A DNA stretch of 64,000 nucleotides, taken from Verrucomicrobiota bacterium (GTDB taxonomy: Bacteria; Verrucomicrobiota; Verrucomicrobiia; Limisphaerales; AAA164-E04). Below, in pieces: positions 308 through 30,757 of the stretch. The stretch's first letter is position 1. Every line of letters starts with the position of its first letter. The stretch is from contig CP170459.1 in the NCBI GenBank assembly GCA_047947115.1, positions 711,467 to 775,466 of the forward strand, given 5' to 3'. The position numbers were made by a program, and so were the translations under genes. A model generated the notes under the pieces. The model was not told where the DNA came from and made no database searches. It saw only the letters and a program-made list of their open reading frames with translations.

Positions 308-1036
308 ATGAAATCTGATTCCATTTTGTCGCCGCTTTCTTTCAAAAACCAGATCATCGCACTCTCTGCATTGTTCATCCTTTCCACCGCATTCGCCCAG
401 GATCTCTCCAGCGAGAAAAGCGTCAAGCCCGGCGTCAACGACAACTTCCTGGCGGCCGACCTCGACGTCAGTCAATGGGTGGAACGTTTCGAAACCGAAG
501 GTCGGGAAGTTTACGCCCTCCGCAACAAAGTCGTTGAAACCATCGACATCAAACCCGGCCAGAGTGTCGCCGACATCGGAGCCGGCACCGGCATCTACAC
601 CGGATTGTTCGCGGACGCGGTCGGCAAAGAAGGAACCGCCTATGCCGTGGACATCGTCCCCGTCTTCCTTTCCAACATCCTCAACCGCGCCAAGGAAACC
701 GGACGCAACAATATCAAAACCGTCCTCGGCACCGCCAAATCCACCAACCTCCCGGAAAACTCCGTGGACAAGGTCTTCATCTGCGACACCTACCACCACT
801 TTGAATTTCCCCGCAACACCCTGGCTTCCCTCCACAAAGCCCTGCGAAAAGGAGGCGAAATCATCCTGGTCGATTTCAAACGCGTCGAAGGTGAAAGCTC
901 CGACTGGATCATGAACCACGTCCGTGCCGGTGAAGAAGTCTTCTCAGCAGAAGTCGAATCCGCCGGCTTCGAAAAAGTCGCCTCCTACGACCTCCTCAAA
1001 GACAACTACATGATCCGATTCCGCAAAAAAGATTAA
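308..1036 (+). CDS. Class I SAM-dependent methyltransferase with N-terminal signal-like segment
   Basis: Motif I VADIGAGTG, AVDI, VDKVFICDTYHHF; hydrophobic N-terminus ending AFA-QD. Confidence 0.85.
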   Translation: MKSDSILSPLSFKNQIIALSALFILSTAFAQDLSSEKSVKPGVNDNFLAADLDVSQWVERFETEGREVYALRNKVVETIDIKPGQSVADIGAGTGIYTGLFADAVGKEGTAYAVDIVPVFLSNILNRAKETGRNNIKTVLGTAKSTNLPENSVDKVFICDTYHHFEFPRNTLASLHKALRKGGEIILVDFKRVEGESSDWIMNHVRAGEEVFSAEVESAGFEKVASYDLLKDNYMIRFRKKD

Positions 1037-1045
1037 GGTGTTCAG

Positions 1046-1459
1046 TCAGGATTTCCATGGGTTTAGGACATCCACACCATCAGGAAAATCAGATTCGTTT
1101 CTGGTGGCGATGACAAGCTGGAATTCGAGAGCTGTTGCCGCAATAAGACTGTCCATCAGGTTTAACTTTCGGCCTTTATTTTGATGATAAGCGTAGAAAG
1201 CACCCCATCGGTTCATGACAGATCCCGACACAGGAAATAACCTTCCCTCAGTCCACGTTTCGATACGTCTATACCAATTCTCAATCTGCGAACGGCGTTT
1301 TGAACGATTCAGCAACTGGATACCCTTGACGAGTTCCCCCATTGTCAGCACGCTCACACCTAGTTCTGAGTCATTCCGTCGAAACCATTCCATCACTCCC
1401 TGATGAGGATTTGGTCGACACAGTTCACTCAGCACATTGGTGTCCACGAGATATGTCAT
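1046..1459 (-). CDS. vapC: VapC-family PIN domain toxin
   Basis: YLVDTNVLSE, SVLTMGEL, DSLIAATAL, ATRNESDF PIN motifs; directly downstream of antitoxin. Confidence 0.9.
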   Translation of the reverse strand: MTYLVDTNVLSELCRPNPHQGVMEWFRRNDSELGVSVLTMGELVKGIQLLNRSKRRSQIENWYRRIETWTEGRLFPVSGSVMNRWGAFYAYHQNKGRKLNLMDSLIAATALEFQLVIATRNESDFPDGVDVLNPWKS

Positions 1460-1467
1460 GCGCAGTC

Positions 1468-1710
1468 CTACTGGAGCAGGAAATCTCTTGCCGTATCTTC
1501 GCTTCGATCAACACCCCACCCTTTGACTGGACACTCCTGCAATATGTCAGCCAACGTTTCTCTTGGAGCCATCTGCTGAAATTTTTCCATGGAAAGAACT
1601 ACAACAGTGGGTTGACCATGCCGGGTTATCATTTGAGGCCCATCCTCAAGGGCAGAATCCACCAACTTGCTCAATTTATTCTTAGCATCTTGAAGCGACC
1701 ACGATGTCAT
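1468..1710 (-). CDS. Phd/YefM-family antitoxin
   Basis: WSLQDAKNKLSKLV...GPQMITRHGQPTVVVLS; 8 bp upstream of PIN toxin. Confidence 0.9.
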   Translation of the reverse strand: MTSWSLQDAKNKLSKLVDSALEDGPQMITRHGQPTVVVLSMEKFQQMAPRETLADILQECPVKGWGVDRSEDTARDFLLQ

Positions 1711-1820
1711 GAGAACAACTTAGCTCACAATTCTGGCTAGTCTAGCTATTTTAACGCAAAACAGCGTTATGCCGAGATACCGCTGAAGTGAATTCACCGA
1801 CGGGCCCAAAATAATTCTCA

Positions 1821-1864
1821 TTGACAAACCTACACCTGTAAGCAACGATACTCCTACACTTGTA
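1821..1864 (+). promoter_or_regulatory. Promoter with two BlaI/CopY-type operators (TACA-NN-TGTA at 1831-1840 and 1855-1864)
   Basis: TTGACA at 1821-1826 followed by TACACCTGTA and TACACTTGTA (the second within the extended palindrome CCTACA-CT-TGTAGG), just upstream of the BlaI-family gene. Confidence 0.8.
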
Positions 1865-1873
1865 GGACACCAT

Positions 1874-2287
1874 ATGACCGTACACTCAAAACCAAAGAAA
1901 ACAGATCTTCCGGACCTCTCACCCAGCCAACTCGAGATCATGCAGGAAATCTGGGAACGTGGCGAAACCACCGTCAGCGAAGTGTGGGAAAGTCTTTTAT
2001 CCCAACGTCAGGTGGCAAGGAACACGATTCTGACCCTCATGGACCGACTCACCCAAAAAGGGTGGCTGAAACGTCGCATAGATGCGGGTGTCCACTATTA
2101 CTCCGCCACCACCGCACGCAAAAAGACCCTGGGCAACATGGTCAATCAATTGATCGAAAAAGCCTTTGCCGGTTCAAGCGAAGACCTGGTGCTCACACTG
2201 CTTGAAAGCCGAGGCCTGACCAAAGCCGAATCAGACCGTATTCAAACCCTCATCCAACAAGCAGCAAAGAAAGGAAACAAAAAATGA
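1874..2287 (+). CDS. BlaI/MecI/CopY family transcriptional repressor
   Basis: LSPSQLEIMQEIWERGETTVSEV...RNTILTLMDRLTQKGWL...GSSEDLVLTLL. Confidence 0.9.
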   Translation: MTVHSKPKKTDLPDLSPSQLEIMQEIWERGETTVSEVWESLLSQRQVARNTILTLMDRLTQKGWLKRRIDAGVHYYSATTARKKTLGNMVNQLIEKAFAGSSEDLVLTLLESRGLTKAESDRIQTLIQQAAKKGNKK

Positions 2288-4881
2288 ACGTTCCCGCCTT
2301 TTTCGACGGTTTTCTCATCTGGATGGCCCTGTCTTCGGTCATAATACTGGCTGCCGGAATCATCGCACTCCTGCTGTTTCGTAAAAGCGCCGCATGGCGG
2401 CACCAGATTTGGCTGAACATGTTGATCGGAATCTGGCTGCTCCCTACCGCCACCTGGATCGTTCAGGAAATGAACTGGAACTGGACGCCAAGCAACAAAA
2501 AACACAACACTGTTTTCGATTCCCGTGCTGCATCAACACCTGCTACTCCAACCATCGAACCTGCTCTGGACAAAAACGAAACATCCCAACCGGGTACCCA
2601 TTTCTCAACAACGACTCAACTTTCAACTCCACCCACTGTCCCTATCCCGTCGAACCAGGACAAGAAAACCCTGAGAGAATGGATCCATCCGGCGAAAGCA
2701 GCGCTTTTCTGGACTTGGTTATCGGGAACCTTGTTCCTTTGCTCAAGATGGATGATCGGCTGGTGGCGACTGAGACAGATCATCCGCCATTCCTCTCCCA
2801 TCAACCAACGGACAACCACGGAAATCCTGAAACGTACGGTCGATAACCTCGACATGAAATGTTGTCCCCGAATTCATACATCCCAGCAAATCACCACCCC
2901 CATGGTGATCGGGACATGGAATCCCTCCATTCTTTTGCCTTTCCCCCAACTGCAGGAAATCAGCCCCCCTGAACTTGAACAAATCCTGATCCACGAGTGC
3001 GCCCATATTCAACGCCGCGATCACTGGGTCTGGTTACTCCAACGCATCGGACGCACGATCTGTTGGATCAATCCCCTCTACCACTGGATGCACGCCGAAC
3101 TGAGCCGTGCCCGCGAAGAACTCTGCGACAACCATGTTCTCCAACAATGGACCGGACTCGACTACGCCCAAACCCTGTCCAAAGTCTCGAACAGATGGCA
3201 TCAACAGAACCCCATGATCACCGGCCTCGCCATCGGCTTCCGAAAACACCAACTCGTCCACCGCGTCGAAACCCTACTCGACCAAACCGTCGATCATCGC
3301 AGCTCACTGAACCCGATTTCCCAATCAGCCTTCTTCATCCTATTCTCCGCCCTCATACTGAGCTGCGCCCTTGTCACATCCGGACTCACTCAGGAACAAA
3401 CAAAAAATTCACTCGAGGATACGCCACCAGATTCAGCTATCGAAACATCCAAGCTCCGACCCTACCCGAATGACATCAAGGCGCAGAAGTATTTGATGTC
3501 CGACGGAAAAGACATCCACGAAGTTGAATACTACCCTTGGGTGGAAGAAAGCGATTACCAACGGGTACCTAAGTCAATGTTTGATAGTTACGACTTAAAA
3601 CCATTTGTGTGGAATTCACGAAAAACAAGTCGAATAACTTTATCTGCCAACTTCGCTCACTTCTGCGGACTAACACAAAAGCAAGCAGAAGAGGTAAACC
3701 AAGTTATTGCTCAAACTCTAAATGAGTTTGATTTGCTGAAAGCAAGTCAGATGGAATTCGTTAGCGAAGTGGACTGGGACGACGATTATCCCCACTCAGG
3801 AATAAAGAAAACGGTGACTTTTAAATGGGATCCAATTGAAGATCAACACATTGATGTCTTCCTTGAATTGCGGAAAATCTTGGAGCGTGAAGTCGAGAAG
3901 GTTTTAGGTTCAGATCGGACAAAATTGCTATTACAAGCTAGACAGCCTGCATCTGTTCTTTCAGGAATGACTGAAGGGATGCTATCGAATCCCCCCAGAC
4001 AACAAATTTTTCCAAAGTATTACGTTTTCTGCTTAGAAAAGTATGGAACTGGTTGGATTGTGAGCATGAAGAGGGGAAGCATAGCCAACTACGGCGGACC
4101 GCTACCTGAAGAATTGGATCAATATGTCCCTGAACGAATGAAAGAGACGCTTTCAAAATGGAGGGAATTCGCCAGAGCAAATCCACCGACAGATGAAGAA
4201 ATCAAAAACTTGAGCGTTCAAATTTCAATTGAGCCAAACGAGCAATATTCCCGACATAGTGAACAGCATTTGGTTCTCTGGAGTCCTGAAAATCCACATT
4301 TCGATATTCCAAAAAAACTTTTAGCCGAACTCTCAGTCCCAGGCCTATCCATTTACAATGGCATCTCAAACACTGCAGCCACCATGCTTGGCCTGTCTGA
4401 CGAGGGCAATCGTTTACTGACGAAAACCTATCAGGAATTTGACACTCGATTCAGAATCCTCCAAAAACAGCATATGCACCCCCTCTCCAATGAATCATAC
4501 AATCTCCAAATCAATGCATTTCCAAACGAAGCCAACAAACTAAAAGAGGTGTGGCTAACATTCTTACTCAAGACCTTTGGGGAGACTCAGGCGCACACAA
4601 TAGACAAAGCGCTGCGAACAGTTCCGGATGAATATGAATACATGCAAGGTTTTCCACCTTCTATCCTTTCATTTATGAGCTTTCCTTCACGCATTTGGTT
4701 AGAATCAGGAACCGATTCCATTAAATTCTATGTCTTGGACGAACGAACGAGTTTTAAGAAAATCGAATGGACGAAATCAGACGGACAGCAGGGAGTGACG
4801 GTTGCACAGAATAATTACATTAGTGATCACCAAGAGCGAATCCTCCGAAGTCTGTTCAACCTTGATTTTGATTCCGAATAA
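2284..4881 (+). CDS. M56 (BlaR1-like) metallopeptidase with long unknown C-terminal region
   Basis: N-terminal TM helices, ILIHECAHIQRRD (HExxH), WINPLYHW, REELCD; overlaps blaI-like stop by 4 bp. Confidence 0.85.
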   Translation: MNVPAFFDGFLIWMALSSVIILAAGIIALLLFRKSAAWRHQIWLNMLIGIWLLPTATWIVQEMNWNWTPSNKKHNTVFDSRAASTPATPTIEPALDKNETSQPGTHFSTTTQLSTPPTVPIPSNQDKKTLREWIHPAKAALFWTWLSGTLFLCSRWMIGWWRLRQIIRHSSPINQRTTTEILKRTVDNLDMKCCPRIHTSQQITTPMVIGTWNPSILLPFPQLQEISPPELEQILIHECAHIQRRDHWVWLLQRIGRTICWINPLYHWMHAELSRAREELCDNHVLQQWTGLDYAQTLSKVSNRWHQQNPMITGLAIGFRKHQLVHRVETLLDQTVDHRSSLNPISQSAFFILFSALILSCALVTSGLTQEQTKNSLEDTPPDSAIETSKLRPYPNDIKAQKYLMSDGKDIHEVEYYPWVEESDYQRVPKSMFDSYDLKPFVWNSRKTSRITLSANFAHFCGLTQKQAEEVNQVIAQTLNEFDLLKASQMEFVSEVDWDDDYPHSGIKKTVTFKWDPIEDQHIDVFLELRKILEREVEKVLGSDRTKLLLQARQPASVLSGMTEGMLSNPPRQQIFPKYYVFCLEKYGTGWIVSMKRGSIANYGGPLPEELDQYVPERMKETLSKWREFARANPPTDEEIKNLSVQISIEPNEQYSRHSEQHLVLWSPENPHFDIPKKLLAELSVPGLSIYNGISNTAATMLGLSDEGNRLLTKTYQEFDTRFRILQKQHMHPLSNESYNLQINAFPNEANKLKEVWLTFLLKTFGETQAHTIDKALRTVPDEYEYMQGFPPSILSFMSFPSRIWLESGTDSIKFYVLDERTSFKKIEWTKSDGQQGVTVAQNNYISDHQERILRSLFNLDFDSE

Positions 4882-5178
4882 ACCGCTTTTCTTATTTGAA
4901 TTCATCCAGCAATCAGTAATAGGATAAAACCGGCTGCAGGAAACTCTACCCTTCCCCTGGCGTATCCAAAGCGGCGCTGCACGCCGCACTCCAGATTTGC
5001 GCAAGAGAACCTTTGGAAGCGTCAACGACAATTATTTGCCTCCTCCACCACAAAACTACACGAGGTGTTCCCCCTCAAACCACTTCGTGGCTTTGTGCCT
5101 TTGTGTGAAAAAAACATATAGGAAACTCAGCCCCTTTAAGCTCGCAAGTTGCCCCGTTTAGCCTTAAACATTCCGGGC

Positions 5179-5997
5179 ATGAACGAGACACCAGCAGCCC
5201 TGTTTCGACGTTTGAAGGGCGCCAAACATTTTTTTCTGATCGCCGGCCCGTGCGTCATTGAGGACGAGGCGGGCTGCCTGGAAATCGGACGACACATGAA
5301 AAAGATCTGTGCCGGTCTCGATATCCCCTACGTGTTCAAAGCCAGCTTCGACAAAGCCAACCGCTCCTCCAGTCAATCCTATCGCGGCCCCGGCTTTGAG
5401 CATGGATTGGAGATCCTTTCCAAAATCGGTCAGGACCTCAAACTCCCGGTCCTGTCGGACATTCACACCGAACAACAAGCCCTTGCAGCAGGCAAGGTGC
5501 TGGACATTCTCCAAATCCCCGCTTTCCTCTGCCGTCAGACCGATTTGCTCCAGGCCGCCGCCTCGAGCAAACGCATCATCAACATCAAGAAAGGCCAGTT
5601 TCTCAGCCCGAACGACATGCGCAACGTCGTTGACAAAATGAAACAGTTCGGCAACCAGAAACTTCTGCTCACCGAGCGTGGATCGAGTTTCGGCTACAAC
5701 AATCTGGTGACGGACATGCGTTCGATTCCGATCATGCAGGGATTCGGATGTCCGGTGGTCTTTGACGCGACCCATTCCGTTCAACTACCTGGTGGACAGG
5801 GAGACAAATCCGGCGGTCAGGGTGAGTTCGCTCCCGTCCTGGCACGTGCCGCGATGGCGGTTGGCGCCGAGGGATTGTTTGTGGAAACACATCCTGATCC
5901 TACAAAATCTCCAAGCGACGGACCGAACATGATTCCCTTGCCTGAAATGAACGCACTCCTGAAGCGACTGTCCAAAATCAAAGCTGCACTGAAATGA
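5179..5997 (+). CDS. kdsA: 3-deoxy-8-phosphooctulonate (KDO8P) synthase
   Basis: IAGPCVIE, FKASFDKANRSS, QIPAFLCRQTDLL, KKGQFL, FDATHSVQLPG. Confidence 0.95.
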   Translation: MNETPAALFRRLKGAKHFFLIAGPCVIEDEAGCLEIGRHMKKICAGLDIPYVFKASFDKANRSSSQSYRGPGFEHGLEILSKIGQDLKLPVLSDIHTEQQALAAGKVLDILQIPAFLCRQTDLLQAAASSKRIINIKKGQFLSPNDMRNVVDKMKQFGNQKLLLTERGSSFGYNNLVTDMRSIPIMQGFGCPVVFDATHSVQLPGGQGDKSGGQGEFAPVLARAAMAVGAEGLFVETHPDPTKSPSDGPNMIPLPEMNALLKRLSKIKAALK

Positions 5998-7943
5998 GAT
6001 TCTCAAGAAAAGCCATCACCTCTTCACACAGGCATATTTTGAAAGGAACACACTCCATAAGATTCCATTACTTTTGGATCTGTTTCACACTTGTGACCGG
6101 ATACGCCGTTCATTCAATTGCACAGGACAGCAATCCCTTGCAAGGAACTGTGAAAGGAGGATTCAAGACAACTGTTTCGGACGGCGACAAAGTCAGCGTG
6201 GTCTTCCGAGGTGATGAAATCGTCGACAATCGCATCACCGGATTAAGCATACAATTCAACGAGGACACCGAAGAAGCCAAACCCAAATTTTATGCAGAAT
6301 CACCTTCCTGCGAACGAAGTTCCGGTACGGACGATATTACTTCAACAGATTCCATCAAATTCTGGACAGCCGATAACAGGCTGATAATTGAGGGCATCGG
6401 ATGGGCCTGGGTAAAATCTCAATCTTTACTGATCATCAGCAACAAAGTTTCCACCACCATTCGTAAAGATTATATTGAAGCAAGCCCTTTATCTTCGAAA
6501 CCAAAAGCAACGAGTGGCGGCAAAGGGGTCGTCAACATTCATTCCGATCGATTTACTTTCAATCGCAACACATCCCAGGCAACCTTTTCCAACAACGTCA
6601 CTGCGGAAGATCCAGACAGACTCGCAATGTCCTGTAATCAACTACGAATCAATTTAGGCGAAGGTTCGGAAGAGTTGAAGGAAGTCATTGCAGAAGGTTC
6701 GGTGAGACTGAAACTACTGGATCCAAAACTCGAAGTCGAAGCCCAAAGCGGTCGCGCCATCTATAGTTTCGGCACCGAGAACGAGGGCACGCTCGAACTG
6801 CTCGACGCCCCCACATGGTCGGCAACCAGCTACAAAGGCGGAGGGGATCGTATTGTTGTTTCAGACACCGAAGCAAAGGGCAACTTTATGGTCCTTGGAA
6901 ACGCCTTCGCCACTCTTGATCCCGCCAACATCCGCAACCAAACCCTCAATGACGAAAACACAAAAACATCACTCATTGAAATCACTTCGGACCAATACAA
7001 CTTCGATGGTGACACAGTGCGGTTCGAAGGATTCGTCAAAGCATCGCAGCAACAAAACTGGACACTCCAATGCGACACACTGACTGCAGGCGTCAACCAG
7101 GAGTCCGGTCAAGTCAGGGAAATTGATGCGGGGGGAAATGTCCGGTTGACTCAAGTGCGCCAGGGAAAAACCATGCAATCCAGCGCCGACCAGGCGCTAT
7201 ATCGCCCCCTTCAAGACACCACGGAATCCATTGTATTGACGGGGTCGGCCATGGTGGATACGGGGGAATACCTTGCCCGCGGCCAAATGATTGAATGGGT
7301 CCAATCCGGCGAACAACAAACCATCAACGTCACCGGCCTGGCCACACTTGAAATGCCGGTGACGACAGTGATCAGTATTGGCATTCTTGATCTCCCCGAA
7401 AACAACAATACAAAAGAGAATTCGGATAAACCTTCCAAGCTGAGGGTGACAGCCGACCACTATCAATTTGCCGATCAGAAAGCGGTTTTCGAGAACAACG
7501 TCAAAGTTTACTTCGCAGACTCCACCATGGGATGTCAACGGATGGACGTAAAGTTTACTCCGGGCCGAACCGGCATCGAATCTTTGGAAGCCACCGGGAA
7601 CATCCTGTTTTCTGGAGAAGAAGGACGGATGACCTGCCAAAAGGTAATCGGCTATTTCTCGCAAGACACCCATCAAATGGAACGTCTGGTCGCAACGGAA
7701 TCGGTCAGACTCACCCATCCCAAGGGCAAGGCCAGAGGCGACAAGGCGACATTCTACCCGCAGACCGCCACCGTGCACCTGACCGGTGATCCTCAGGTCG
7801 TCGCGCAAGTGCCATCATCCAAGGGCGGGCGACCAAATTATTTTCATGCCGAGGGAGGAACTCTTTACTGGAATCAGGCCCGAAGCCGGTTCAGCGGCAA
7901 AGGAATGACGGTCAAAACTATCGAGAATCCCGACTTGTGGTAA
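5994..7943 (+). CDS. Long LptC/LptA(OstA)-like multi-beta-jellyroll protein
   Basis: Lies between kdsA and lptB; N-terminal TM; three repeated I-x-S/A-D...F...V OstA-like segments. Confidence 0.65.
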   Translation: MRFSRKAITSSHRHILKGTHSIRFHYFWICFTLVTGYAVHSIAQDSNPLQGTVKGGFKTTVSDGDKVSVVFRGDEIVDNRITGLSIQFNEDTEEAKPKFYAESPSCERSSGTDDITSTDSIKFWTADNRLIIEGIGWAWVKSQSLLIISNKVSTTIRKDYIEASPLSSKPKATSGGKGVVNIHSDRFTFNRNTSQATFSNNVTAEDPDRLAMSCNQLRINLGEGSEELKEVIAEGSVRLKLLDPKLEVEAQSGRAIYSFGTENEGTLELLDAPTWSATSYKGGGDRIVVSDTEAKGNFMVLGNAFATLDPANIRNQTLNDENTKTSLIEITSDQYNFDGDTVRFEGFVKASQQQNWTLQCDTLTAGVNQESGQVREIDAGGNVRLTQVRQGKTMQSSADQALYRPLQDTTESIVLTGSAMVDTGEYLARGQMIEWVQSGEQQTINVTGLATLEMPVTTVISIGILDLPENNNTKENSDKPSKLRVTADHYQFADQKAVFENNVKVYFADSTMGCQRMDVKFTPGRTGIESLEATGNILFSGEEGRMTCQKVIGYFSQDTHQMERLVATESVRLTHPKGKARGDKATFYPQTATVHLTGDPQVVAQVPSSKGGRPNYFHAEGGTLYWNQARSRFSGKGMTVKTIENPDLW

Positions 7944-7957
7944 TCGCTCGCTGAGGC

Positions 7958-8743
7958 ATGATCGAACACAAAGAAAACATGGACGCACTGGAAAGCGAAA
8001 CTACCGAAAGCAACGGGACGAATCTGCTCCTGCAGACATCCGAACTGGCCAAAGCCTATAAAGGACGCCGCGTCGTGGATGGCGTATCCATTCACGTCGA
8101 AGAAGGTGAAATCGTTGGATTGCTCGGGCCCAACGGCGCGGGCAAAACCACTTCCTTCAACATGGTGGTGGGAGTCGTTCGGCCTGATGATGGAGAAGTT
8201 TACTTCCGACAAACGCCTGTCTCCAATCTTGCGATGCACCAACGTGCCCGACTGGGGATGGGATACCTCACGCAGGAACCATCCGTTTTCCGCAAGCTGA
8301 CCGTTGCCCAGAACATTCTGGCGATTCTGGAAACCTGCAAGCTAACCGCTAGGGAACGAAAGATCCGGCTTCAAGCCCTGCTGGACGAACTGGATTTGGC
8401 ACGACTTGCCGACAGCAAGGCCTACACCCTGAGCGGAGGAGAAAAGCGTCGCCTGGAAATCACACGCGCATTGGTCACGCACCCAAAACTGTTGTTGCTG
8501 GATGAACCCTTCAGCGGCATCGACCCTATCGCGGTGTACGAAGTTCAAAAAATTGTGCGCCGCCTCAAGGAGAAAGGCCTGGGCATTCTGATCACCGATC
8601 ACAACGTCCGCGAAACCCTCAAACTCGTCGATCGCGCCTACATCATCCATCAGGGAAAGATACTCTGCCATGGACCCGCCGAGTTTTTGGCGGAAGATCC
8701 CCAGGCCAGGGAAATATACCTGGGACCCGACTTTAATTTATGA
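7958..8743 (+). CDS. lptB: LPS export ABC ATPase
   Basis: GLLGPNGAGKTT, LSGGEKRRLEI, LLDEPFSGIDP, ITDHNVRETL. Confidence 0.95.
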   Translation: MIEHKENMDALESETTESNGTNLLLQTSELAKAYKGRRVVDGVSIHVEEGEIVGLLGPNGAGKTTSFNMVVGVVRPDDGEVYFRQTPVSNLAMHQRARLGMGYLTQEPSVFRKLTVAQNILAILETCKLTARERKIRLQALLDELDLARLADSKAYTLSGGEKRRLEITRALVTHPKLLLLDEPFSGIDPIAVYEVQKIVRRLKEKGLGILITDHNVRETLKLVDRAYIIHQGKILCHGPAEFLAEDPQAREIYLGPDFNL

Positions 8744-9714
8744 AAAAAGCAGGAAGCCCAAAAGAACAGTCTGTTGCTGTTGAGGAATTTCTAAAGGAAC
8801 ACAGCGAAGAACTGAAACTAAATCCTATCGGTGAACCAACCGGACTCCATCGGCACATTAAGGAGCCAACTGTCAACCGCCCGGGGTTGGCCCTGGTAGG
8901 TTACAAAAAATACTTTGCAAGCAAGCGAGTCCAAGTCTTCGGCAGCGTGGAAACGACCTACCTGCGGTCACTCAACCCCCAGGACCGAGCCGATCTCTAC
9001 AACTGGATCTTCAAAACACGCATACCCTGCGTCATTTTCTCACGCAATCTGAACCCGGATAAAGCCCTCCTGAGCGCGGCACGTAAAGCCAAAGTTCCCG
9101 TGTTCAAAACCCCCCTGATTACCATGCGGTTCATCAACCTTGCAACACTTGCACTGGAGATGATGTTCGCCCCCAAAACAAATGAAATCGGGTGCATGGT
9201 CGACATCCTGGGAGTGGGAGTCATCATCCGGGGTGAAAGCGGCATCGGCAAAAGCGAAGCCGTGCTGGCGCTGGTCGAGCGGGGATACAGCCTGGTAGCC
9301 GATGACATCACAAAAGTGACCCGCATTGATCATCATTACATCGTCGGTACCAGTGATGAAATGACGCGCAACCTCATGGAAATTCGTGGCATCGGCCTGA
9401 TCGATGTCGCAGCCATGTTCGGTGTGCGCAGCATCCGCAAGGAAAAACAGGTCAACCTCGTCGTAAACCTTGTGCACTGGGATAAATTGAAGCAAATCGA
9501 CCGTCTGGGCATCGACAACGAATATGTCGAAATACTCGGAGTCAAAATACCCCACATCACTATTCCGGTCAGCCCGGGACGTGATGTTGCGCGCCTGATC
9601 GAAGTCGCAGCGTTCCAGACAAAACTGAAAGCATCTGGTATCAATACGGCCCAAGCCTTGAGCGACCGGCTGGTTCGAAAAATGACTCGCAACCGGTCGA
9701 CTCATGGAGATTAG
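8740..9714 (+). CDS. hprK: HPr kinase/phosphorylase
   Basis: VNRPGLAL, GESGIGKSE, LVADD, MEIRGIGLIDV, PVSPGR. Confidence 0.95.
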   Translation: MKKAGSPKEQSVAVEEFLKEHSEELKLNPIGEPTGLHRHIKEPTVNRPGLALVGYKKYFASKRVQVFGSVETTYLRSLNPQDRADLYNWIFKTRIPCVIFSRNLNPDKALLSAARKAKVPVFKTPLITMRFINLATLALEMMFAPKTNEIGCMVDILGVGVIIRGESGIGKSEAVLALVERGYSLVADDITKVTRIDHHYIVGTSDEMTRNLMEIRGIGLIDVAAMFGVRSIRKEKQVNLVVNLVHWDKLKQIDRLGIDNEYVEILGVKIPHITIPVSPGRDVARLIEVAAFQTKLKASGINTAQALSDRLVRKMTRNRSTHGD

Positions 9715-9835
9715 CGTTAATAGTTAGACCTGACCCCAATAGATTAAGTTTAAAAAATCGCTGGCTTCGTTCGATATCTCTTGTATAGTTTTAAGCCGAG
9801 CACTTCCGGATGGCAAGCGGAGGAGTAATTTAAGA

Positions 9836-10126
9836 ATGCCTCAATCAAATACAGCAGACTCAATCACAAAGGAGCTGGTTGTCCAAAACAAAATGGGCAT
9901 CCACGCCAGACCTGCAGCCATGTTCGTACGCACTGCCAGCCAGTTCGATGCGGACATTTTTGTGGAGAAGGACGGCGAACGGGTCAATGGGAAAAGCATC
10001 ATGGGACTCATGATGTTGGCAGCAGGTCCGGGCAGCAAATTGATCGTGGAGGCCTGCGGCAAGGATGCTGACAAAGCCGTCCAGCAGTTGGAGACCCTGC
10101 TGGCCAACAAATTTGACGAGAAATAA
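9836..10126 (+). CDS. ptsH: HPr phosphocarrier protein
   Basis: GIHARPA (His15) and NGKSIMGLM (Ser46). Confidence 0.95.
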   Translation: MPQSNTADSITKELVVQNKMGIHARPAAMFVRTASQFDADIFVEKDGERVNGKSIMGLMMLAAGPGSKLIVEACGKDADKAVQQLETLLANKFDEK

Positions 10127-10175
10127 GACTCCAGACTGTGGAGCTTGGGCTAAGCCCCCCCATTCGAATCGCTCA

Positions 10176-10955
10176 TTAAAGGGACTCCGCCACTCGCTCG
10201 ATCGCAAAGGCTCGCCCTGTGGGAATATCCACTTTGATCAAAGCCCCACGAAGCATGACATCTTCCTGCGCCACTCCAAACCGTTGGGGTTGATGTGTCA
10301 GAAAGCGCTTGATAACCGGATCTATTTCTCGCCCAAGCACACTCGCCTGCGGTCCGGTAAACCCCGCATCACACAGAAAAGCAGTCCCACCAGGGAAAAT
10401 CTGTTCATCAGCGGTGGGAACATGAGTGTGAGTCCCCACCACCATGGACACTCGACCATCCAGGAAACGTCCCATGGCGATCTTTTCAGAAGTCGCCTCT
10501 GCATGAAAATCCAACACGATGATTGGGGTCAGTTCGCGTATTTCTTCGAGAACAGTTTCCACTGCATGAAACGGATTGTCGAGGTCGGGCATGAAGGTAC
10601 GCCCCTGAAGATTCATGACCGCTACCTTGGGGCCATTTTCGTTCTGCCAGATGGTCCACCCTTTTCCCGGCGTTCCCGCAGGGTAATTGAGGGGTCTCAC
10701 AAAAAACGGCTCCTTCTCCAATAATCCAATCACTTCACGCTGGTCCCACAAATGGTCGCCTGTCGTAATCACGTGAACCCCTGCCTCATACAACTCTCTG
10801 GCGGTGGCAGGCGTAATTCCCGCCCCACCAGCCGAGTTCTCACCGTTCGCGATCACCATATCCACACCATGCCGCTCAACAATGCGAGGCACACACTCCC
10901 GCACCGCTTTTCTTCCCGGTCTCCCTACCACATCACCAATAAACAAAATATTCAT
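10176..10955 (-). CDS. YmdB/TIGR00282 metallophosphoesterase
   Basis: ILFIGDVVGRPGR, IANGENSAGG, DFHAEATSEK, GTHTHV; start placed at ATG 10955. Confidence 0.9.
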   Translation of the reverse strand: MNILFIGDVVGRPGRKAVRECVPRIVERHGVDMVIANGENSAGGAGITPATARELYEAGVHVITTGDHLWDQREVIGLLEKEPFFVRPLNYPAGTPGKGWTIWQNENGPKVAVMNLQGRTFMPDLDNPFHAVETVLEEIRELTPIIVLDFHAEATSEKIAMGRFLDGRVSMVVGTHTHVPTADEQIFPGGTAFLCDAGFTGPQASVLGREIDPVIKRFLTHQPQRFGVAQEDVMLRGALIKVDIPTGRAFAIERVAESL

Positions 10956-11213
10956 GAAATGCAGACTAGGCCCCACGTTAACCGTTTTGCAAGACCGCTC
11001 ACCACGCATTCACTCTTACACGCCTCACCAAAACATCCATTAATGATGTGTAATTAGTTTACCTTATTTAATATCTTGCAATTTGTCTGCCTCTATGTAT
11101 ATTGGGGTCGCGTAAGGGTCGGAACAGGATTATGTCAGATAATACAACGAATAGATTGCACAATTTTCGATCATCTGACACCACCCCCGCCCCGGAAAAG
11201 GGAGCCTGAATAT

Positions 11214-12112
11214 ATGCAAATACAGAGTCTGAAAGTTTTTAGTGATCTGGCGGAAACAGAAAGCTTTACCAAAGCTGCACAAATCAATGGCATCACGCAA
11301 TCAGCGGTCAGTCAGCAAATTGGATCACTTGAAAAGCAGTTCGAAACCTTGTTGATTGAACGTAGCAAAAAGAAATTCCGCCTGACGCGTGAAGGAAATG
11401 TGCTGTACGGTACAGCAAGCAAATCATCCAAACCTACGATTCCCTGCTCAATCACCTGCAGGAAATCAAAGATGTCGTGTCAGGAACAATTCGTGTCGCA
11501 ACCATTTATAGCGTGGGCTTGCACGAGCTGCCGCCCTACATGAAGCGGTTCCTGAAAGAATACCCCACCGTGAATGTGCACGTTGAATACCGCCGCTCCA
11601 ACCAGGTTTATGATGACGTGCTCAGCAACGTGGTAGACTTGGGCCTCGTCGCCTACCCTATCAAGGATTCACGCCTGGAAATCATCCCCATCCGAAACGA
11701 CCGTCTGGTCCTGATCTGCCATCCCGACCACGCATGTGCCCAGTCAGATACAATTCAATTATCCAGTCTGGAAGGTTTGAATTTCATTGGATTCGAACCT
11801 GACATCCCCACTCGAAAGGGAATTGACAGAATCCTGAAAACATTCGGAGTACAGGTCAATGTTGCGATGGAATTCGACAATATCGAAACCGTCAAGCGAG
11901 CGGTCGAAATCGACGCAGGTATTTCCATCGTACCTCTGGGAACTGTCACACAGGAAATCAACAAACAAACCCTCACCTGCGTGGAAATTGCCGACGACAC
12001 CTTTTACCGACCGCTGGCCGTGGTCTACAAGAAGAGCAAAGTCCTCTCACCTGCCATGAAGGAATTCATGAATATTCTGAAAGAGGATCTGGAAAAGGCA
12101 TCCAAAAAATGA
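11214..12112 (+). pseudogene. LysR family regulator split by a 1-bp deletion at about 11409-11410 (real lesion or sequence error)
   Basis: HTH (SFTKAAQINGITQSAVSQQI) in one frame; linker and effector domain (YSKQIIQTYDSLLNHLQEIKDVVSGTIRVA...) continue in another frame after GTG CTG TAC GG TAC. Confidence 0.8.
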
Positions 12113-12125
12113 TTGGATCAGAGGC

Positions 12126-13208
12126 ATGCATCAAGATACATGCCCAGCCAAAGTCAAAGTCGCCGTCATCGGTGCCTCCGGCTATTCAGGTGAAGAGCTC
12201 GTCAAATTGCTCCTGCTCCACCCTCAAGTGGACCTGACCGCGTTGACCTCTCGTCAATACGAAGGCAAATCTCTTGGGGAAGTTTTCCCAAAATTTGCCA
12301 ATCTGCCCGGCGCCAAAGAACTCAGCTTTATCGCACCGGACACGGACAAAATACTCGAACGCGCCGAACTCGCCTTTCTGGCCCTCCCCCATGGAGTGGC
12401 TGCGGAATTTGCCACCCCCCTATGTGCGGGCGGATGTCTGGTTATTGATTTGAGTGCGGATTTCAGAATCCACGATCCTGTGGTATACAAAGAATTTTAT
12501 GGTGCCGACCACCCTGCCCCGGAACTCCTCGAGCAGGCCGTCTACGGACTCCCCGAATGGCGAAGGGATGCCATAAAACAGGCCAAGCTCATCGCCTCGC
12601 CCGGATGTTATCCGACCAGCATATTGCTGCCGTGCCTTCCCTTAATCAAAGAAGATCTCATCCAACCCTCCACCATCATCGCCAACTCACTGAGCGGAGT
12701 GAGCGGGGCCGGTAGAAAGGCGGACATCCCCTACCTCTATGTCGAATGCAACGAAAGCGTCCGTCCCTACGGTGTGCCCAAGCACCGGCATCTTTCCGAA
12801 ATCGAACAGGAAATCAGCCTGGCAGCGGGATGCAAAACAGTGATCCAGTTCACGCCACATCTGATCCCTGTCAATCGAGGTATTCTGACCACTCTCACCA
12901 TGGCACCATCGGAAAAGGCGATGGCGAACAACCATGCTGCTTCCATCATAGAGCAAGTCGATGCATGCCTGAAAAAGGCTTACGAAAACGAACCTTTCGT
13001 ACGATTGCTCGGAGCCAAAGGACTTCCGGACACCAAACATGTGGTCGGGACCAACAACATCGAGATCGCCTTTCGATACGACGAACGAACCGGACGGCTC
13101 CTTGTGATGAGCGCCGAAGACAATCTGGTCAAAGGAGCCAGCGGACAGGCAATTCAATCGATGAACATCCTGAGGGGTTTTCCTGAAACCACAGGGCTGA
13201 TGCTTTAA
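12126..13208 (+). CDS. argC: N-acetyl-gamma-glutamyl-phosphate reductase
   Basis: IGASGYSG, FLALPHG, DLSADFR, SPGCYPT, DNLVKGASGQAIQ. Confidence 0.95.
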   Translation: MHQDTCPAKVKVAVIGASGYSGEELVKLLLLHPQVDLTALTSRQYEGKSLGEVFPKFANLPGAKELSFIAPDTDKILERAELAFLALPHGVAAEFATPLCAGGCLVIDLSADFRIHDPVVYKEFYGADHPAPELLEQAVYGLPEWRRDAIKQAKLIASPGCYPTSILLPCLPLIKEDLIQPSTIIANSLSGVSGAGRKADIPYLYVECNESVRPYGVPKHRHLSEIEQEISLAAGCKTVIQFTPHLIPVNRGILTTLTMAPSEKAMANNHAASIIEQVDACLKKAYENEPFVRLLGAKGLPDTKHVVGTNNIEIAFRYDERTGRLLVMSAEDNLVKGASGQAIQSMNILRGFPETTGLML

Positions 13209-25926: not shown

Positions 25927-27384
25927 TTAAGCCGCTTTGGCTTTTTGCTCCGCAGCTTGCCGTTGTTTCTCTATCAAGGCTCGCCCGATACGATGCAAAT
26001 TGTAAGCCAGCACCCCAAACCCAACATATCGTTTGTACCCTGATAGCCCTTTGTCTGGGCATCGGTTCAGTCCGTGATGCTCCAGTTCATTGATGTTGCT
26101 TTCAATGGCTGCATGTCGTCGCTTGAGTCTTTTAAAGGAGCTGCTGGTTTCACGTTCCTCTTCGACTTTATTGCGTCTTCCTTTTTTGGGCATCACTACC
26201 TCCGGGATCTGCAGCTTCAAATCCTCTAGTTTACTCATGTCACTGAACCCTTTGTCCATGCTCAGCGAATGGATGTTTCCTTCTCCAAAACGATTTACCA
26301 GTCGCAATACCAACGGTTCGAGTTCCTGATTGTCCGTGGTCTTTTCCATGACTTTGTAATCCAATATCAGTCCGTGCTGATCAGTGCTTACTAGGACTTT
26401 GTGTCCCAGTTCAACGGAGGGACGCATCTTGCCCTTGGCGATCCATTCAGTATGGGGTTCGAAGAGCGAAAACACTTTTTCCTCGTGTGGAATAGTCTCT
26501 TCTTTCACGATTCGGCGTTCAACCAAATCAATATGCTTCTCAAGCATTAAGGCAAAATAGCGGATTTTTTCGAGGCAGAGAAAGTGCGTTGGATCCTGGC
26601 AGACTTTATCCACTCGCCCAATATCTTCAGAGACTTTTGCTCCAAGTTCCTTTGCTTTGCGAAGGTAATTTTTCGCGGCTTTTTCCTGACGCTGATGTCG
26701 ATTCTTGCCACCGCGACTAGACTGCTGAAGCTGGCGCATCAAGCCCTTGATGGTTGTTTTCCAATTTTTGGCTTTACGCCATCCCTCAAGGCCAACCTCC
26801 CGGGCAAGCCAACTCAGTAAGTCGATGCTTTTGCGTGCCGCATCCCACAACAGATTAATATCGGTTGGAAAGTGCACATTGGTCTCAAGAACGTAGCTAT
26901 CGGTTTTAACGAGGATTTTTTCGGCGACGTTTTTTTTTAGTTCCTTGCGTCCGTGCAAAACCACGATTTCATTGATTTGCCCCAGAAGTTGCTCGTCCAC
27001 ATGACAAACATTTTCACTGAGAGTTTTGTGGTGAAAATTTTCCCCACCGGAGGCCACAACGGGCAATCCCATAATCTGTCGCACCAATGAATGGTGATTG
27101 GCCATATCCTCAAGCCGGTCATAGTCGCAATCCAAAGACATTCGACACACACCCAAAACCAGAATTTGCCACAAATCCATTCAGGGGCGACCGGTGTGCT
27201 TCTTGTTTCCGATTACCTTTTGTTCCAGCAATTCGAAAACCTGTTCGTTGATTTCAGGTGTTGAAAAGATCCACTGCAGCCCAGCCAAAGTAGGAGGGAG
27301 CTCATCGCGACTTTTTAACGGGATGGAAACGAGTTCAATAGGTGTTTGACCCAAATTAAGCTGAGCTTCAAATCGCTTGCGCAT
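25927..27384 (-). pseudogene. ISNCY/IS5-like DDE transposase with in-frame TGA at 27181-27183
   Basis: MRKRFEAQL...TGRP*MDLWQILVLG reads through in one frame; KTDSYVLETNVHFPTD, DKGF, RHAAIESNINELEHHGL. Confidence 0.85.
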
Positions 27385-27527
27385 GGGGCATAACACTACC
27401 ACTGCAGAGTGATTTTTACGACGAATATCAGAGAGAAAATCTCATTTTTTCAACAATTTGAATGACAACGTTCCGGGATTCGTTCTCAGAAAACTTCGGA
27501 ATCCCTTTGCTGACTTGATCATTCTAG

Positions 27528-27544
27528 TTTTCAGTCAGGCACTA
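27528..27544 (-). repeat. Probable left terminal sequence of the ISNCY-like element (TAGTGCCTGACTGAAAA on -), abutting the broken attC4
   Basis: attC homology stops exactly here; partner end not found near 25850-25926. Confidence 0.55.
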
Positions 27545-27619
27545 GTTAATGGTTCAAATTTCATCATACGCTACAAATCACAGCGGCGGTGGCCAGTTGC
27601 CTACACCGTTCTGTTCGCA
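27545..27619 (-). repeat. attC4, truncated (R'' and L'' half only)
   Basis: TGCGAAC-agaac-GGTGTAGGC-aactggccaccgcc... matches the other attC copies until interrupted by the IS end. Confidence 0.85.
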
Positions 27620-27911
27620 CTATATCCGTTGGTTTCCATAGCGCGGATGCCTGCCATGATGCCTTATACGACAACAATTCGAATACCTTCGCTCAACACC
27701 CGATAAAGAAAATGGTATGGAAAACGTTTTAGATTGGCTCGGCGGCGTCCCTGATCAACTTGATGAAACCTTAGTGGCGCATTGGCAGCAGCTTCAATCA
27801 CTGTTATCAATTCCTCCAAAATGCATCTCCTAATCGAGGTGAGATGTTATCGTAATGCCGGAGAATCCGTCTGACTTCCCGCTGAACCGTGGGATGATAC
27901 TCCACTCTCAT
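27620..27911 (-). pseudogene. RelE/ParE-family toxin of cassette 4, inactivated
   Basis: Reconstructed MRVEYHPTVQREVRRILRHYDNISPRLGDAF..ELITVIE...RRANLKRFPYHFLYRV...VVVRHHGRHPRYG needs one base restored near 27815 and 2 bases removed near 27666; ATGA overlap with antitoxin. Confidence 0.8.
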
Positions 27912-28126
27912 CGCCCGCGCTCTTCCTGAACACGGCGTACGAATTCTTCGTGAAGCATTGGTTCAACAGCCCCGCTTTCCATCTCTGCCTCACGCCTATC
28001 CACCTCATCATCTGTGACCATACTATCCGGCGCACCGAGAGTTTCGATGAGAGAAACGACCAAAGTGGCACGCTCCGGAGCGTTTAATCCATGAGCTTCC
28101 CGCTCAATGTCCTGTAGGGTCATCAC
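27908..28126 (-). CDS. Addiction-module antitoxin (TIGR02574-like), cassette 4
   Basis: IEREAHGLNAPERATLVVSLIETL...DEVDRREAEMESG. Confidence 0.8.
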   Translation of the reverse strand: MMTLQDIEREAHGLNAPERATLVVSLIETLGAPDSMVTDDEVDRREAEMESGAVEPMLHEEFVRRVQEERGR

Positions 28127-28175: not shown

Positions 28176-28296
28176 AGCAAACGTCGAGACGCTGGCCTGT
28201 AAGCCGACCTGACGATTCTCAGTTAAAGGTTCAAATTTCATCACACGCTCCAAATCACAGCGGCGGTGGCCAGTTGCCTGCACCGTCCTGGTAGGA
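28176..28296 (-). repeat. attC3 (121 bp; 5-bp deletion in L' region)
   Basis: R'' TCCTACC ... R' GTTTGCT; GCCTGACCTCGAC of the other copies is reduced to GTCTCGAC. Confidence 0.88.
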
Positions 28297-28694: not shown

Positions 28695-28820
28695 TCCTAC
28701 CGTCGAGGTCAGGCGCTGGCCTGTAAGCCGACCTGACAATACTCGGTTAAAGGATCAAATTTCATCATATGCTCCGAATCAAAGCGGCGGTGGCCAGTTG
28801 CCTGCACCGCCCTGGTAGGC
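28695..28820 (-). repeat. attC2 (126 bp)
   Basis: R'' GCCTACC, L'' GGTGCAGGC with extrahelical G versus L' GCCTGACC, R' GGTAGGA. Confidence 0.9.
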
Positions 28821-28833
28821 GATAAAGAGCAAT

Positions 28834-29166
28834 CTAACTCTCCATGGTCCGTCTTGCATTCTCTTTCAAGTGCAGTATACGTATCACAGTGCCCCGCGCA
28901 ATAACTCGAACGCCCTCTCGAATCTCAAACTCTGTACCAACTTCAAGGTGGTCGACGTGTGCGTGAGGACTCAAGAATCGAAACAAAGTCCTCGCAGTAT
29001 CGCCCGGTCGAACGCAATCTCTTCCAAGATACTCCTGATCTGCATCCCAATTCTCTCCCTTGTAATAAAACTGCCCCCTATATCCTGTATGCACTGGTCT
29101 GGATCTACCACCGTCCTCGGTGGATAGAAATGATACCTCTGCCTCAATGTCTGGTGGAAATTTCAA
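28834..29166 (-). CDS. Integron cassette 2: stand-alone EF-Tu domain III-like protein
   Basis: IEAEVSFLSTEDGGRSRPVHTGYRGQFYY...VRPGD...FEIREGVRVIARGTV parallels the EF-Tu C-terminal barrel. Confidence 0.8.
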   Translation of the reverse strand: MKFPPDIEAEVSFLSTEDGGRSRPVHTGYRGQFYYKGENWDADQEYLGRDCVRPGDTARTLFRFLSPHAHVDHLEVGTEFEIREGVRVIARGTVIRILHLKENARRTMES

Positions 29167-29169
29167 GTG

Positions 29170-29295
29170 GCCTACCGTATAGGTCAGGCGCTGGCCTGTA
29201 AGCCGACCGGACGATACTCAGTTAAAGGTTCAAATTTCATCATACGCTCCGAATCACATCGGCGGTGGCCAGTTGCCTGCACCGCCTTGTTCGAC
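29170..29295 (-). repeat. attC1 (126 bp)
   Basis: R'' GTCGAAC, L''/L' pair as in attC2, R' GGTAGGC. Confidence 0.9.
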
Positions 29296-29299
29296 GATG

Positions 29300-29590
29300 T
29301 CACGCTCTCGTAATCACCCACTCCTCTGCACTCTTCCTGAAGTTGTCGGGTATGTTTTTCCACCTAGTCCCTGTAGAAAGTGTCAAATCTCCAACTGTAT
29401 CGACAATGTGCTTGAACCAATCCAGATAGCTCCACTCTCTGGGCTTGGGGGAATACAAGTATCGCCCCTTGGAGTCCCAGTGAACTTCGGTACCCTCACG
29501 ATAAATCATCGGGTAAGTGTTAGATGTCGGAGTAATGAGCAAGCGTCCCTGCTCGTCAATCGCTACCTCGGCTATGGGATCGGTATTCAC
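29300..29590 (-). CDS. Integron cassette 1: Hfx_Cass5-like hypothetical protein
   Basis: IAEVAIDEQGRL...PMIYRE..EVHWD...LYSPKPREWSYLDWF resembles, from memory, the integron-cassette family Hfx_Cass5. Confidence 0.6.
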   Translation of the reverse strand: MNTDPIAEVAIDEQGRLLITPTSNTYPMIYREGTEVHWDSKGRYLYSPKPREWSYLDWFKHIVDTVGDLTLSTGTRWKNIPDNFRKSAEEWVITRA

Positions 29591-29596
29591 TTTGTC

Positions 29597-29625
29597 ATCG
29601 AACAGTTTAGATTAATGGAAAAATT
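29597..29625 (-). other. attI site (R core GTTCGAT at 29603-29597)
   Basis: GTT core 6 bp before the first cassette start, complementary to R'' of attC1 (GTCGAAC); lies between array and divergent intI; no attC hairpin here. Confidence 0.75.
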
Positions 29626-29713: not shown

Positions 29714-30757
29714 TTGGTTGACGTTATTTCCATTAATCCAGATATTAGGTTTCGAAAAGTGGAAAGCAAGGCCAAATTCATTCCAAATCCGAAGAAGCGC
29801 CTGATGGATCAGGTGCGGGAGGTGTTGCGGTATCATCATTATGCCTATCGTACGGAACAGATTTATTGCCAATGGATTGTAAGGTTCGTCAAGTTCTACG
29901 AAAGCAAGCGGCATCCCAGAGAAATGGGCGCTCCCGAGGTGCAGGCTTTCTTGTCTCATCTGGCCAGCGATCGGGATGTGGCGGCTTCGACTCAAAAACA
30001 GGCGCTGAATGCGCTGGTTTTTCTCTATCGTCATGTGCTGGATCAACCGCTGGCCCAAGGTATGGATCCCAGGAAAGCGAGCAGAGGCATGCGTCCTCCA
30101 ACGGTATTGACGGAAGAGGAAGTGTCTCGACTTCTGGACGCCATGGAAGGCGTTCATCGTTTGATGGCTCAGTTGATGTATGGTTCGGGACTGCGGTTGA
30201 TGGAGTGCATTCGGCTACGCGTTAAGGATCTGGACTTTGGGCAGGGACAGATCTTTGTGCGTGATGGCAAAGGGGGCAAGGATCGGGTCACGATTTTGCC
30301 CACGCAACTGCATCACTCGTTGAAGGCGCAACTTGAAAAAGTCAGCGCGCTGCATCGTCAGGATTTATCGGAAGGCGCGGGTGAAGTGTATCTGCCGTTG
30401 GCATTGGATCGAAAGTATCCAAATGCCGGAAAGTCTTTTGAGTGGCAGTATGCTTTTCCCGCCAGGAAACGCTCTATTGATCCAAGGTCCGGAAAGGAGC
30501 GTCGTCATCATGTCATGGAGAATGGATTGCAAAAAGCGGTCAAGCGCGCCGCGCTGGCAACAGCGATCCCCAAGCGCATCAGCACGCATACGTTGCGTCA
30601 TAGTTTCGCGACCCACATGTTGGAACATGGCATCCACATTAGGGCTTTACAGGAACTGATGGGGCATGCGGATGTGAAAACGACCGAGATCTACACCCAT
30701 GTCATGAAAAAGGATATCAAACAGTGGATCAGTCCGCTGGATCGTATCATGGGGTGA
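29714..30757 (+). CDS. intI: Integron integrase IntI (start possibly GTG 29759)
   Basis: YAYRTEQIY, ASTQKQALNALVFLY, LMYGSGLRLME, VRDGKGGKDR, IntI-specific insert (VYLPLALDRKYP...WQYAFP...RRHH), HTLRHSFATH, LMGHADVKTTEIYTHV. Confidence 0.95.
   Translation: MVDVISINPDIRFRKVESKAKFIPNPKKRLMDQVREVLRYHHYAYRTEQIYCQWIVRFVKFYESKRHPREMGAPEVQAFLSHLASDRDVAASTQKQALNALVFLYRHVLDQPLAQGMDPRKASRGMRPPTVLTEEEVSRLLDAMEGVHRLMAQLMYGSGLRLMECIRLRVKDLDFGQGQIFVRDGKGGKDRVTILPTQLHHSLKAQLEKVSALHRQDLSEGAGEVYLPLALDRKYPNAGKSFEWQYAFPARKRSIDPRSGKERRHHVMENGLQKAVKRAALATAIPKRISTHTLRHSFATHMLEHGIHIRALQELMGHADVKTTEIYTHVMKKDIKQWISPLDRIMG

Follow-up and report, generated by a model that had tools for sequence, protein, structure and literature searches.

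The window analysed here is the whole stretch of 64,000 nucleotides presented above. It contains a chromosomal integron, in which a gene encoding a solo EF-Tu domain III-like protein of 110 amino acid residues is the second of four minus-strand cassettes arrayed beside the integrase gene, intI. The features of this integron are listed in Table 1.

Table 1. Integron integrase, recombination sites and gene cassettes at the locus (positions in the window)
Feature	Position	Strand	Remarks
Integron integrase IntI	29714..30757	+	divergent from the cassette array; TIGR02249, 435 bits against a cut-off of 265; Pfam Phage_integrase and SAM_4
attI junction	29598..29610	-	cassette 1 crossover between G29603 and T29602, within AAACTGTTCGA
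Cassette 1 ORF, 96 aa	29300..29590	-	Pfam Hfx_Cass5 (integron cassette protein family), E=9e-19
attC of cassette 1	29170..29295	-	R'' GTCGAAC (canonical AAC); R' GGTAGGC carries the 5' end of cassette 2
Cassette 2, 475 bp	28701..29175	-	from the crossover in the upstream attC R' (after the first G of GGTAGGC) to that in its own attC (after the first G of GGTAGGA)
Solo EF-Tu domain III-like ORF	28834..29166	-	110 aa, TTG start, TAG stop; beta-barrel, then a short C-terminal helix
attC of cassette 2	28695..28820	-	R'' GCCTACC (28820-28814); R' GGTAGGA (28701-28695); core GGT/ACC
Cassette 3 ORF, 128 aa	28300..28686	-	no family match; hydrophobic N-terminal segment
Cassette 4	27664..28126	-	Unstab_antitox antitoxin-like gene (27908-28126), then a frameshifted-looking ParE/RelE-like toxin gene (family by eye only)
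IS element, DDE transposase	25927..27402	-	inserted at the distal end of the four-cassette array

A repeat of approximately 126 nt is present in four copies, which are 80-91% alike and are each located 3' of successive minus-strand ORFs. On the coding strand, these repeats start with an R''-like core and end with an R'-like core. The first six bases of cassettes 1-3 are in each case the reverse complement of the R'' core of the cassette's own attC (5' end and R'' are TTCGAT and GTCGAAC for cassette 1, GTAGGC and GCCTACC for cassette 2, and GTAGGA and TCCTACC for cassette 3), as site-specific cassette insertion predicts. The TTG start of the domain III ORF lies 9 nt past the crossover, which is too close for cassette 2 to have its own promoter. 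Thus, the array is divergent from the integrase gene, and the domain III gene has a 3' attC with R'' and R' cores and a complementary 5' end. These results show that the domain III gene is a genuine integron cassette without a promoter. The proposal of the preliminary description that this ORF is carried as an integron cassette is borne out by the adjoining IntI gene, the attC repeats and the R''-matched 5' ends.

The attC cores of cassettes 2 and 3 (28695-28701, 28814-28820, 29170-29176 and 28290-28296) read GGTAGG/CCTACC, and are therefore of the GGT/ACC type, not of the canonical GTT/AAC type. The cores of cassette 1 (GTTCGA/TCGAAC) and of the start of cassette 4 (GTTTGCT) are canonical. 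When the attC sites are folded as single strands, the minimum-free-energy structure contains no single long hairpin. A consensus scan finds no sigma-70-like Pc promoter, and Rfam has no match in the window. The toxin frame of cassette 4 (27664-27906, minus strand) is split over two frames, the first of which reads MRVEYHPTVQREV and continues to AFWRN and two stops, and the second of which contains EELITVIEAAANAPLRFHQV and RFPYHFLYRVLSEGIRIVVV; this ParE/RelE-like gene looks frameshifted. The fourth attC copy (27480-27560) diverges after TTAACT and lacks a clear R', and the array may have been truncated by the IS element.

Contigs of two environmental metatranscriptomes, one of them DNase-treated, lie over the cassette with 0 or 1 difference; metatranscriptome contigs match positions 28893-29303 with no differences, and the coverage of the cassette is somewhat higher toward attI. 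The cassette is therefore probably transcribed, in a pattern consistent with transcription from the integron end, to which carry-over of DNA could contribute. The locus is also present in DNA metagenomes from marsh, estuary and seawater. In these metagenomes, the attI crossover (29603) and the 5' edge of the attC of cassette 2 (28819/28820) are points at which contigs end or join and then continue with other sequence, the matched sides being short (26-30 nt). This result suggests that the cassette has other neighbours, or that the array has variants, in natural populations, although the attC repeats confound assembly at these points.

The 110-aa protein matches the Pfam family GTP_EFTU_D3 (PF03143) with residues 6-97 (E=3.6e-10; 40.5 bits against a cut-off of 27), and this match covers profile positions 7-105 of 106. 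When the protein is compared with PDB sequences by phmmer, it aligns to residues ~303-400 of many EF-Tu chains (best E=2.3e-11). In contrast, NCBIfam TIGR00485, which represents full EF-Tu with a G domain, domain II and domain III, is matched at positions 304-393 alone, with 43.7 bits against a cut-off of 522; the NCBIfam EF-Tu models are in general matched only over their last ~90 positions, with scores far under their cut-offs. The G domain and domain II are absent from the protein. It thus belongs to PF03143, by the profile score and by the superposition of its barrel described below, and does not belong to the family of full elongation factor Tu.

The AlphaFold2 model of the 110-aa protein, built from an input of eight homologues, has a pLDDT of 94.6 and a pTM of 0.85. 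Foldseek superposes this model on EF-Tu domain III with an rmsd of 1.2-1.8 Å over 98-99 columns, at 31-34% identity and E=2e-8, and 1EFU and 1AIP are among the best fold matches. The preliminary description, which had proposed a comparison of this kind, had aligned the ORF by eye with the C-terminal barrel of EF-Tu and had noted that the GTPase domain and domain II are lacking. This assignment is confirmed by Pfam, phmmer, AlphaFold2 and Foldseek, and the motif string read by eye is real: GGR, GYRxQFY, PGD and F-x-IREG-x-R-x-V-x-x-G occur both in EF-Tu domain III (E. coli TufA ~303-393) and in the cassette protein. The two share a six-stranded beta-barrel and ~33-36% identity. The cassette protein differs from EF-Tu domain III in being free-standing, in having a D-G-x-D-W-D-A hairpin, a 4-residue insertion and an extra C-terminal helix, and in being acidic, accessory, horizontally mobile and rare. 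These results show that the gene encodes a soluble, slightly acidic beta-barrel that stands alone and descends from domain III of a bacterial EF-Tu. It is near certain that this protein is an EF-Tu domain III barrel and nothing more, and that its gene is a cassette.

The genome of the host, which is a single contig of 6.08 Mb, contains two PF03143 matches, tuf and the cassette gene. The cassette protein and domain III of the host EF-Tu are 36% identical over 92 residues. This low identity indicates that the cassette gene is not a tuf fragment, and a recent origin from tuf is rejected, also because tuf and the cassette gene are the only matches in the genome. The cassette protein is instead an old, diverged member of its own family.

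If the ORF were a dead gene fragment or spurious, its TTG start and the absence of a clear Shine-Dalgarno sequence would be readily explained, as would the automatic gene call of the public collection, which starts at an internal GTG and gives 86 aa. However, the homology to EF-Tu and to the family begins at residue 6, the N-termini of the family align with the TTG start, hundreds of intact homologues occur across phyla, the fold is predicted confidently, and the gene is covered by RNA contigs. This explanation is extremely improbable and is close to refuted.

A profile search of 1.84 billion representative proteins gives 4102 matches at E<=1e-3. The best 150 of these 4102 representatives are all 86-345 aa long, and none of them is a full EF-Tu. 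A scan of one genome per species gives 57 loci of relatives, which belong to Verrucomicrobiota, Planctomycetota, Bacteroidota, Acidobacteriota, Chloroflexota, Myxococcota, Pseudomonadota and Bacillota, and a metagenome scan gives 202 further relatives. The 57 genome loci and 80 loci kept from the metagenome scan make up the 137 loci of the context analyses. These results show that the family of solo or fused domain III proteins is large, patchy and distributed over at least eight phyla. When 401 Pseudomonadota genomes are searched with the profile, the sole strong family match is in the Collimonas genome at the centre of the search; across the whole search, only tuf and this one family member rank high, and weaker matches are hidden under tuf. 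The family is thus a rare accessory gene.

The relatives are named 'elongation factor Tu', 'EF-Tu-like GTPase' or 'hypothetical' in databases. The label 'elongation factor Tu' is an over-annotation, because TIGR00485 is matched at positions 304-393 only. A literature search finds no publication on the solo domain III family. The only plasmid-borne solo copy found is that of Chondrinema. The fusion gene in a MAG labelled Akkermansia is near-identical to the copies in Chitinophagales and Cytophagales MAGs and is nested in the Bacteroidota clade, which indicates either contamination of the bin or very recent transfer.

Homologues of IntI with 42-54% identity adjoin relatives at several other loci (L016, L020, L127/L147, L129 and L131/L133), and attC arrays with canonical ..AAC/GTT.. 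ends flank the gene at L010, L021 and L033. At L127/L147, intI (5659-6795, plus strand) and the domain III cassette (7001-7357, plus strand) are on the same strand, unlike in the usual divergent layout. Because a strict RYYYAAC/GTTRRRY scan missed many true attC sites, a relaxed scan for AAC...GTT palindromes with paired arms was used instead, with shuffled sequences and random positions as controls. An attC-like site abuts the gene at 30 of the 137 loci (~22%), against 2.6 expected from shuffles (~2%) and 4.8% at random positions in the same loci. The stop codon of relatives with an abutting attC often overlaps R''. In the maximum-likelihood tree, the cassette-borne members are scattered and the phyla are mixed, and at least 13 state changes are forced by well-supported branches. 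These results show that the domain III family is often mobilised as integron cassettes. Approximately 78% of the 137 loci contain no detectable attC and are set among housekeeping genes. Thus, of the two contexts for which homologs were to be surveyed according to the preliminary description, the cassette recurs, at the 30 loci with attC-like sites, and the neighbourhoods show no defence islands.

The residues conserved at 96% or more in the family are, in E. coli numbering, G316, G317, R318, G325, Y326, R327, Q329, F330, G353, G371, F374, R377, E378, G379 and G386, all of which coincide with EF-Tu motifs. The motifs GGR, YRxQFY and IREG of EF-Tu are thus kept. The hairpin RTTDVTG, which faces the T-stem in EF-Tu, is replaced in the family by D-G-x-D-W-D-A: R333 is changed to D, N or E, T334 to G, V337 to W, T338 to D (in 113 of 115 members) and G339 to A. 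In addition, the position occupied by H364 or K in EF-Tu is S, and a 4-residue insertion contains a conserved His-x-Gly. The family has a median pI of 5.5 and a net charge of approximately -3. T382 of EF-Tu, the target residue of the Doc kinase, is replaced by Val in the cassette protein, and its equivalent is Thr in only 64 of 115 relatives. A decoy of the Doc kinase is therefore rejected as the function of the family.

A tRNA- or RNA-binding effector that uses the kept T-stem-binding face would account for the conservation of R21, Q32, R83 and E84 of the cassette protein (R318, Q329, R377 and E378 of E. coli EF-Tu), the EF-Tu equivalents of which contact the T-stem. R330, Q341, T350 and E390 of the Thermus protein, which correspond to R318, Q329, T338 and E378 of the E. 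coli protein, lie on the face that touches the T-stem in the EF-Tu-tRNA ternary complex. However, the charge is reversed at what would be the RNA interface, and the acidic DWDA motif stands in place of the tRNA-contacting hairpin, which argues against tRNA binding. The acidity of the family as a whole likewise makes RNA a less probable ligand and a basic protein a more probable one, and domains I and II, the source of most of the affinity of EF-Tu for tRNA, are absent. A tRNA-binding effector, one of the roles raised in the preliminary description, is disfavoured by the pI and by the replaced hairpin, and is now improbable.

The EF-Tu motifs kept in the family could be purely structural. The barrel would then be a generic scaffold with a function unrelated to EF-Tu or translation, in which the motifs survive because they hold the fold. 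The near-invariant residues common to the family and EF-Tu (GG, YR.QF, PG, G, F, REG and G) are indeed turn or core positions, the genome contexts are heterogeneous and give no hint of a function, and the fusion partners described below are unrelated to translation. In contrast, GGR, YRPQF and IREGxR are specific to bacterial EF-Tu and are not general to the fold, as is seen from eEF1A and SelB. Moreover, Q329 and E378, which are surface residues that contact tRNA in EF-Tu, have equivalents that are 97-99% conserved in the family. A generic scaffold is a serious candidate, but is somewhat unlikely on this evidence.

Pfam tallies of 40 same-strand upstream neighbours and 150 further neighbours give heterogeneous families (among them UPF0047, GH3, RecR, LexA, DinB, glyoxalase and one SUKH), and no toxin family is present among the 40 same-strand upstream neighbours, which are from the genome loci. 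An Rhs, CdiA or ART gene is located upstream at 0 of the 137 loci. All-vs-all BLAST of the neighbours at these loci detects only local synteny of close relatives and recurring tyrosine recombinases, and no neighbour gene is conserved across lineages. The gene is thus always solitary, with no cognate toxin and no operon partner at these loci. A cognate immunity gene, located 3' of a toxin gene, is not supported as the role of the family, because no toxin gene is upstream and no partner recurs at the 137 loci.

In some family members, the domain III barrel is joined at its N- or C-terminus to another domain: DUF6881, DUF5071 (in two cases), pentapeptide repeats, Cys_rich_CPCC, a further copy of domain III or one of several domains with no family match. 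Literature on DUF6881, DUF5071 and Cys_rich_CPCC was not found, and a polymorphic-toxin survey of 2012 does not use the terms EF-Tu, elongation factor, pentapeptide, cysteine-rich or integron. A fusion found in Bacteroidota (L023, L025, L026, L028-L032, L035, L036, L040, L044 and L058) is 235-250 aa long and consists of an N-terminal domain III and an alpha/beta domain of ~130 aa, with the order helix-strand-strand-helix-strand-strand-strand and with invariant W190, F-A-x-W and T-G-x-I-x-V. This alpha/beta domain has no Pfam match; the model has a fair pLDDT of 81, and the fold search is swamped by EF-Tu matches. Tandem pairs of domain III occur among the representatives P0105, P0122, P0157 and P0123, the last of which (345 aa) contains domain II and two matched stretches of domain III, and no G domain. 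In Collimonas sp. H4R21 (positions 1-12700 of the locus L143), ~17 small genes on the same strand, hardly any of which match a family, form an array whose members include domain III, stand-alone DUF5071, DUF4279 and acetyltransferase genes. This array contains no attC repeats and is located directly upstream of tpsB and a tpsA encoding 3195 aa, not downstream of the toxin gene, so that it is at most a possible CDI immunity region. The small-gene arrays and the varied fusions of domain III resemble those of immunity-type small proteins, a resemblance that proves nothing.

A free domain III might instead bind EF-Ts, or the G domain or domain II of EF-Tu in trans, and thereby tune elongation under stress. 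Structures such as 1EFU and 1AIP show domain III of EF-Tu in contact with EF-Ts and packed against domains I and II, and a modulator of the translation cycle would act as a single gene that needs no neighbour. However, the cassette protein has just 36% identity to domain III of its host, the movement of the family from phylum to phylum sits uneasily with a precise match to the EF-Tu or EF-Ts of one host, and the family is very rare, as is seen from the one strong match in the 401 Pseudomonadota genomes. A role of this kind is quite unlikely.

Defence systems are reported to be abundant among integron cassettes (bioRxiv 10.1101/2024.07.02.601686), and Lit, type IV Thoeris, Avs7 and Qbeta replicase all use or cleave EF-Tu (PMC13581612). 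Both observations would fit a cassette that acts in anti-phage defence, or as a counter-defence or anti-toxin factor against phage proteins that exploit EF-Tu. However, PADLOC-DB 2.0 gives no match at E<=0.1 for the domain III protein or the other cassette products, PHROGs gives no match for the domain III protein, no phage-borne relative is found in phage genomes, and BFVD gives only translation factors of giant viruses; an origin in defence systems or phages has no support from these searches. In addition, the neighbourhoods of the relatives are not defence islands, and EF-Tu is not mentioned in the integron cassette literature examined. The anti-phage role guessed at in the preliminary description thus gains no support from the PADLOC and PHROGs searches, the neighbourhoods or the phage genomes, and such a role is hardly probable.

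EF-Tu is among the most abundant and most exploited bacterial proteins. It is used or attacked by the toxins Doc, TreTu, CDI tRNases and Tse6, by the phage factors Qbeta replicase and T4 Gol with Lit, and by the defence systems Avs7 and type IV Thoeris. The most likely reading, put forward tentatively, is that the cassette protein might be a self-sufficient decoy or competitor that binds a protein through its re-tooled tRNA-facing side, in a manner like that of an orphan immunity protein. The free-standing domain III would act alone as a protein-binding module, in which the EF-Tu-specific core of the tRNA side (GGR, YRxQFY and IREG) is kept and the T-stem hairpin has become an invariant acidic Trp motif, D-x-D-W-D-A. 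By competitive binding, this module might serve as a decoy or sponge for a basic protein that would, in its absence, dock to domain III of EF-Tu or to the complex of EF-Tu with tRNA, the candidate partner being an interbacterial toxin or another factor that exploits EF-Tu. A protein with such orphan-immunity-like behaviour would not need a linked partner gene. A decoy or mimic role, also raised in the preliminary description, is possible, but no cognate toxin gene adjoins any of the 137 relatives.

The more specific form of this proposal, that the protein is a decoy derived from the target itself, is rather unlikely to hold in full. According to it, domain III of EF-Tu has been freed from the GTPase and its hairpin has been re-tooled to an acidic Trp bait (DWDA), and the resulting single gene, spread by integrons, would need no partner in order to protect against toxins or phage proteins that have to dock on EF-Tu or on the tRNA bound to it.

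The domain III family resembles orphan immunity proteins, such as SUKH/SMI1-KNR4 and pentapeptide-repeat proteins, in that its members are small, acidic, cytoplasmic, single-domain and patchy in distribution, are solitary or located in small same-strand gene arrays, and are prone to fusion. It differs from them in that no cognate toxin gene is beside any of the relatives, so that the likeness is one of genomic behaviour only. An immunity role of the cassette protein would thus be suggested by analogy only. In the TreTu-TriTu system of Salmonella Typhimurium, EF-Tu is modified by an Rhs ADP-ribosyltransferase, which is paired with an immunity protein (PMC9825190). This system is relevant in showing that interbacterial toxins do target EF-Tu and that small immunity proteins neutralise such toxins. 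TriTu differs from the cassette protein in that it is described as a lid that occludes the active site of the toxin (PMC9825190), and neither its sequence nor its context links it to the domain III cassette; the paper on this system makes no mention of domain III or of a mimic.

The domain III cassette resembles other integron cassettes, such as the neighbouring Hfx_Cass5 cassette (PF18287), in that a small promoterless ORF is followed by an attC near intI and in that the family recurs in integrons of unrelated bacteria. It differs from them in that most of the sampled domain III loci (~78%) are outside a recognisable cassette, and in that its own attC core is GGT/ACC, not GTT/AAC. The domain III cassette illustrates how much cargo is still unexplored in environmental integrons, and the family to which it belongs has been mislabelled 'elongation factor Tu' or 'hypothetical' in databases. 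With ~110 aa and a well-folding domain, this protein is a clean target for structural and interaction studies. A widespread, mobile family of solo domain III proteins could be a simple, transferable interceptor of EF-Tu interactions, or could reveal a new activity of domain III.
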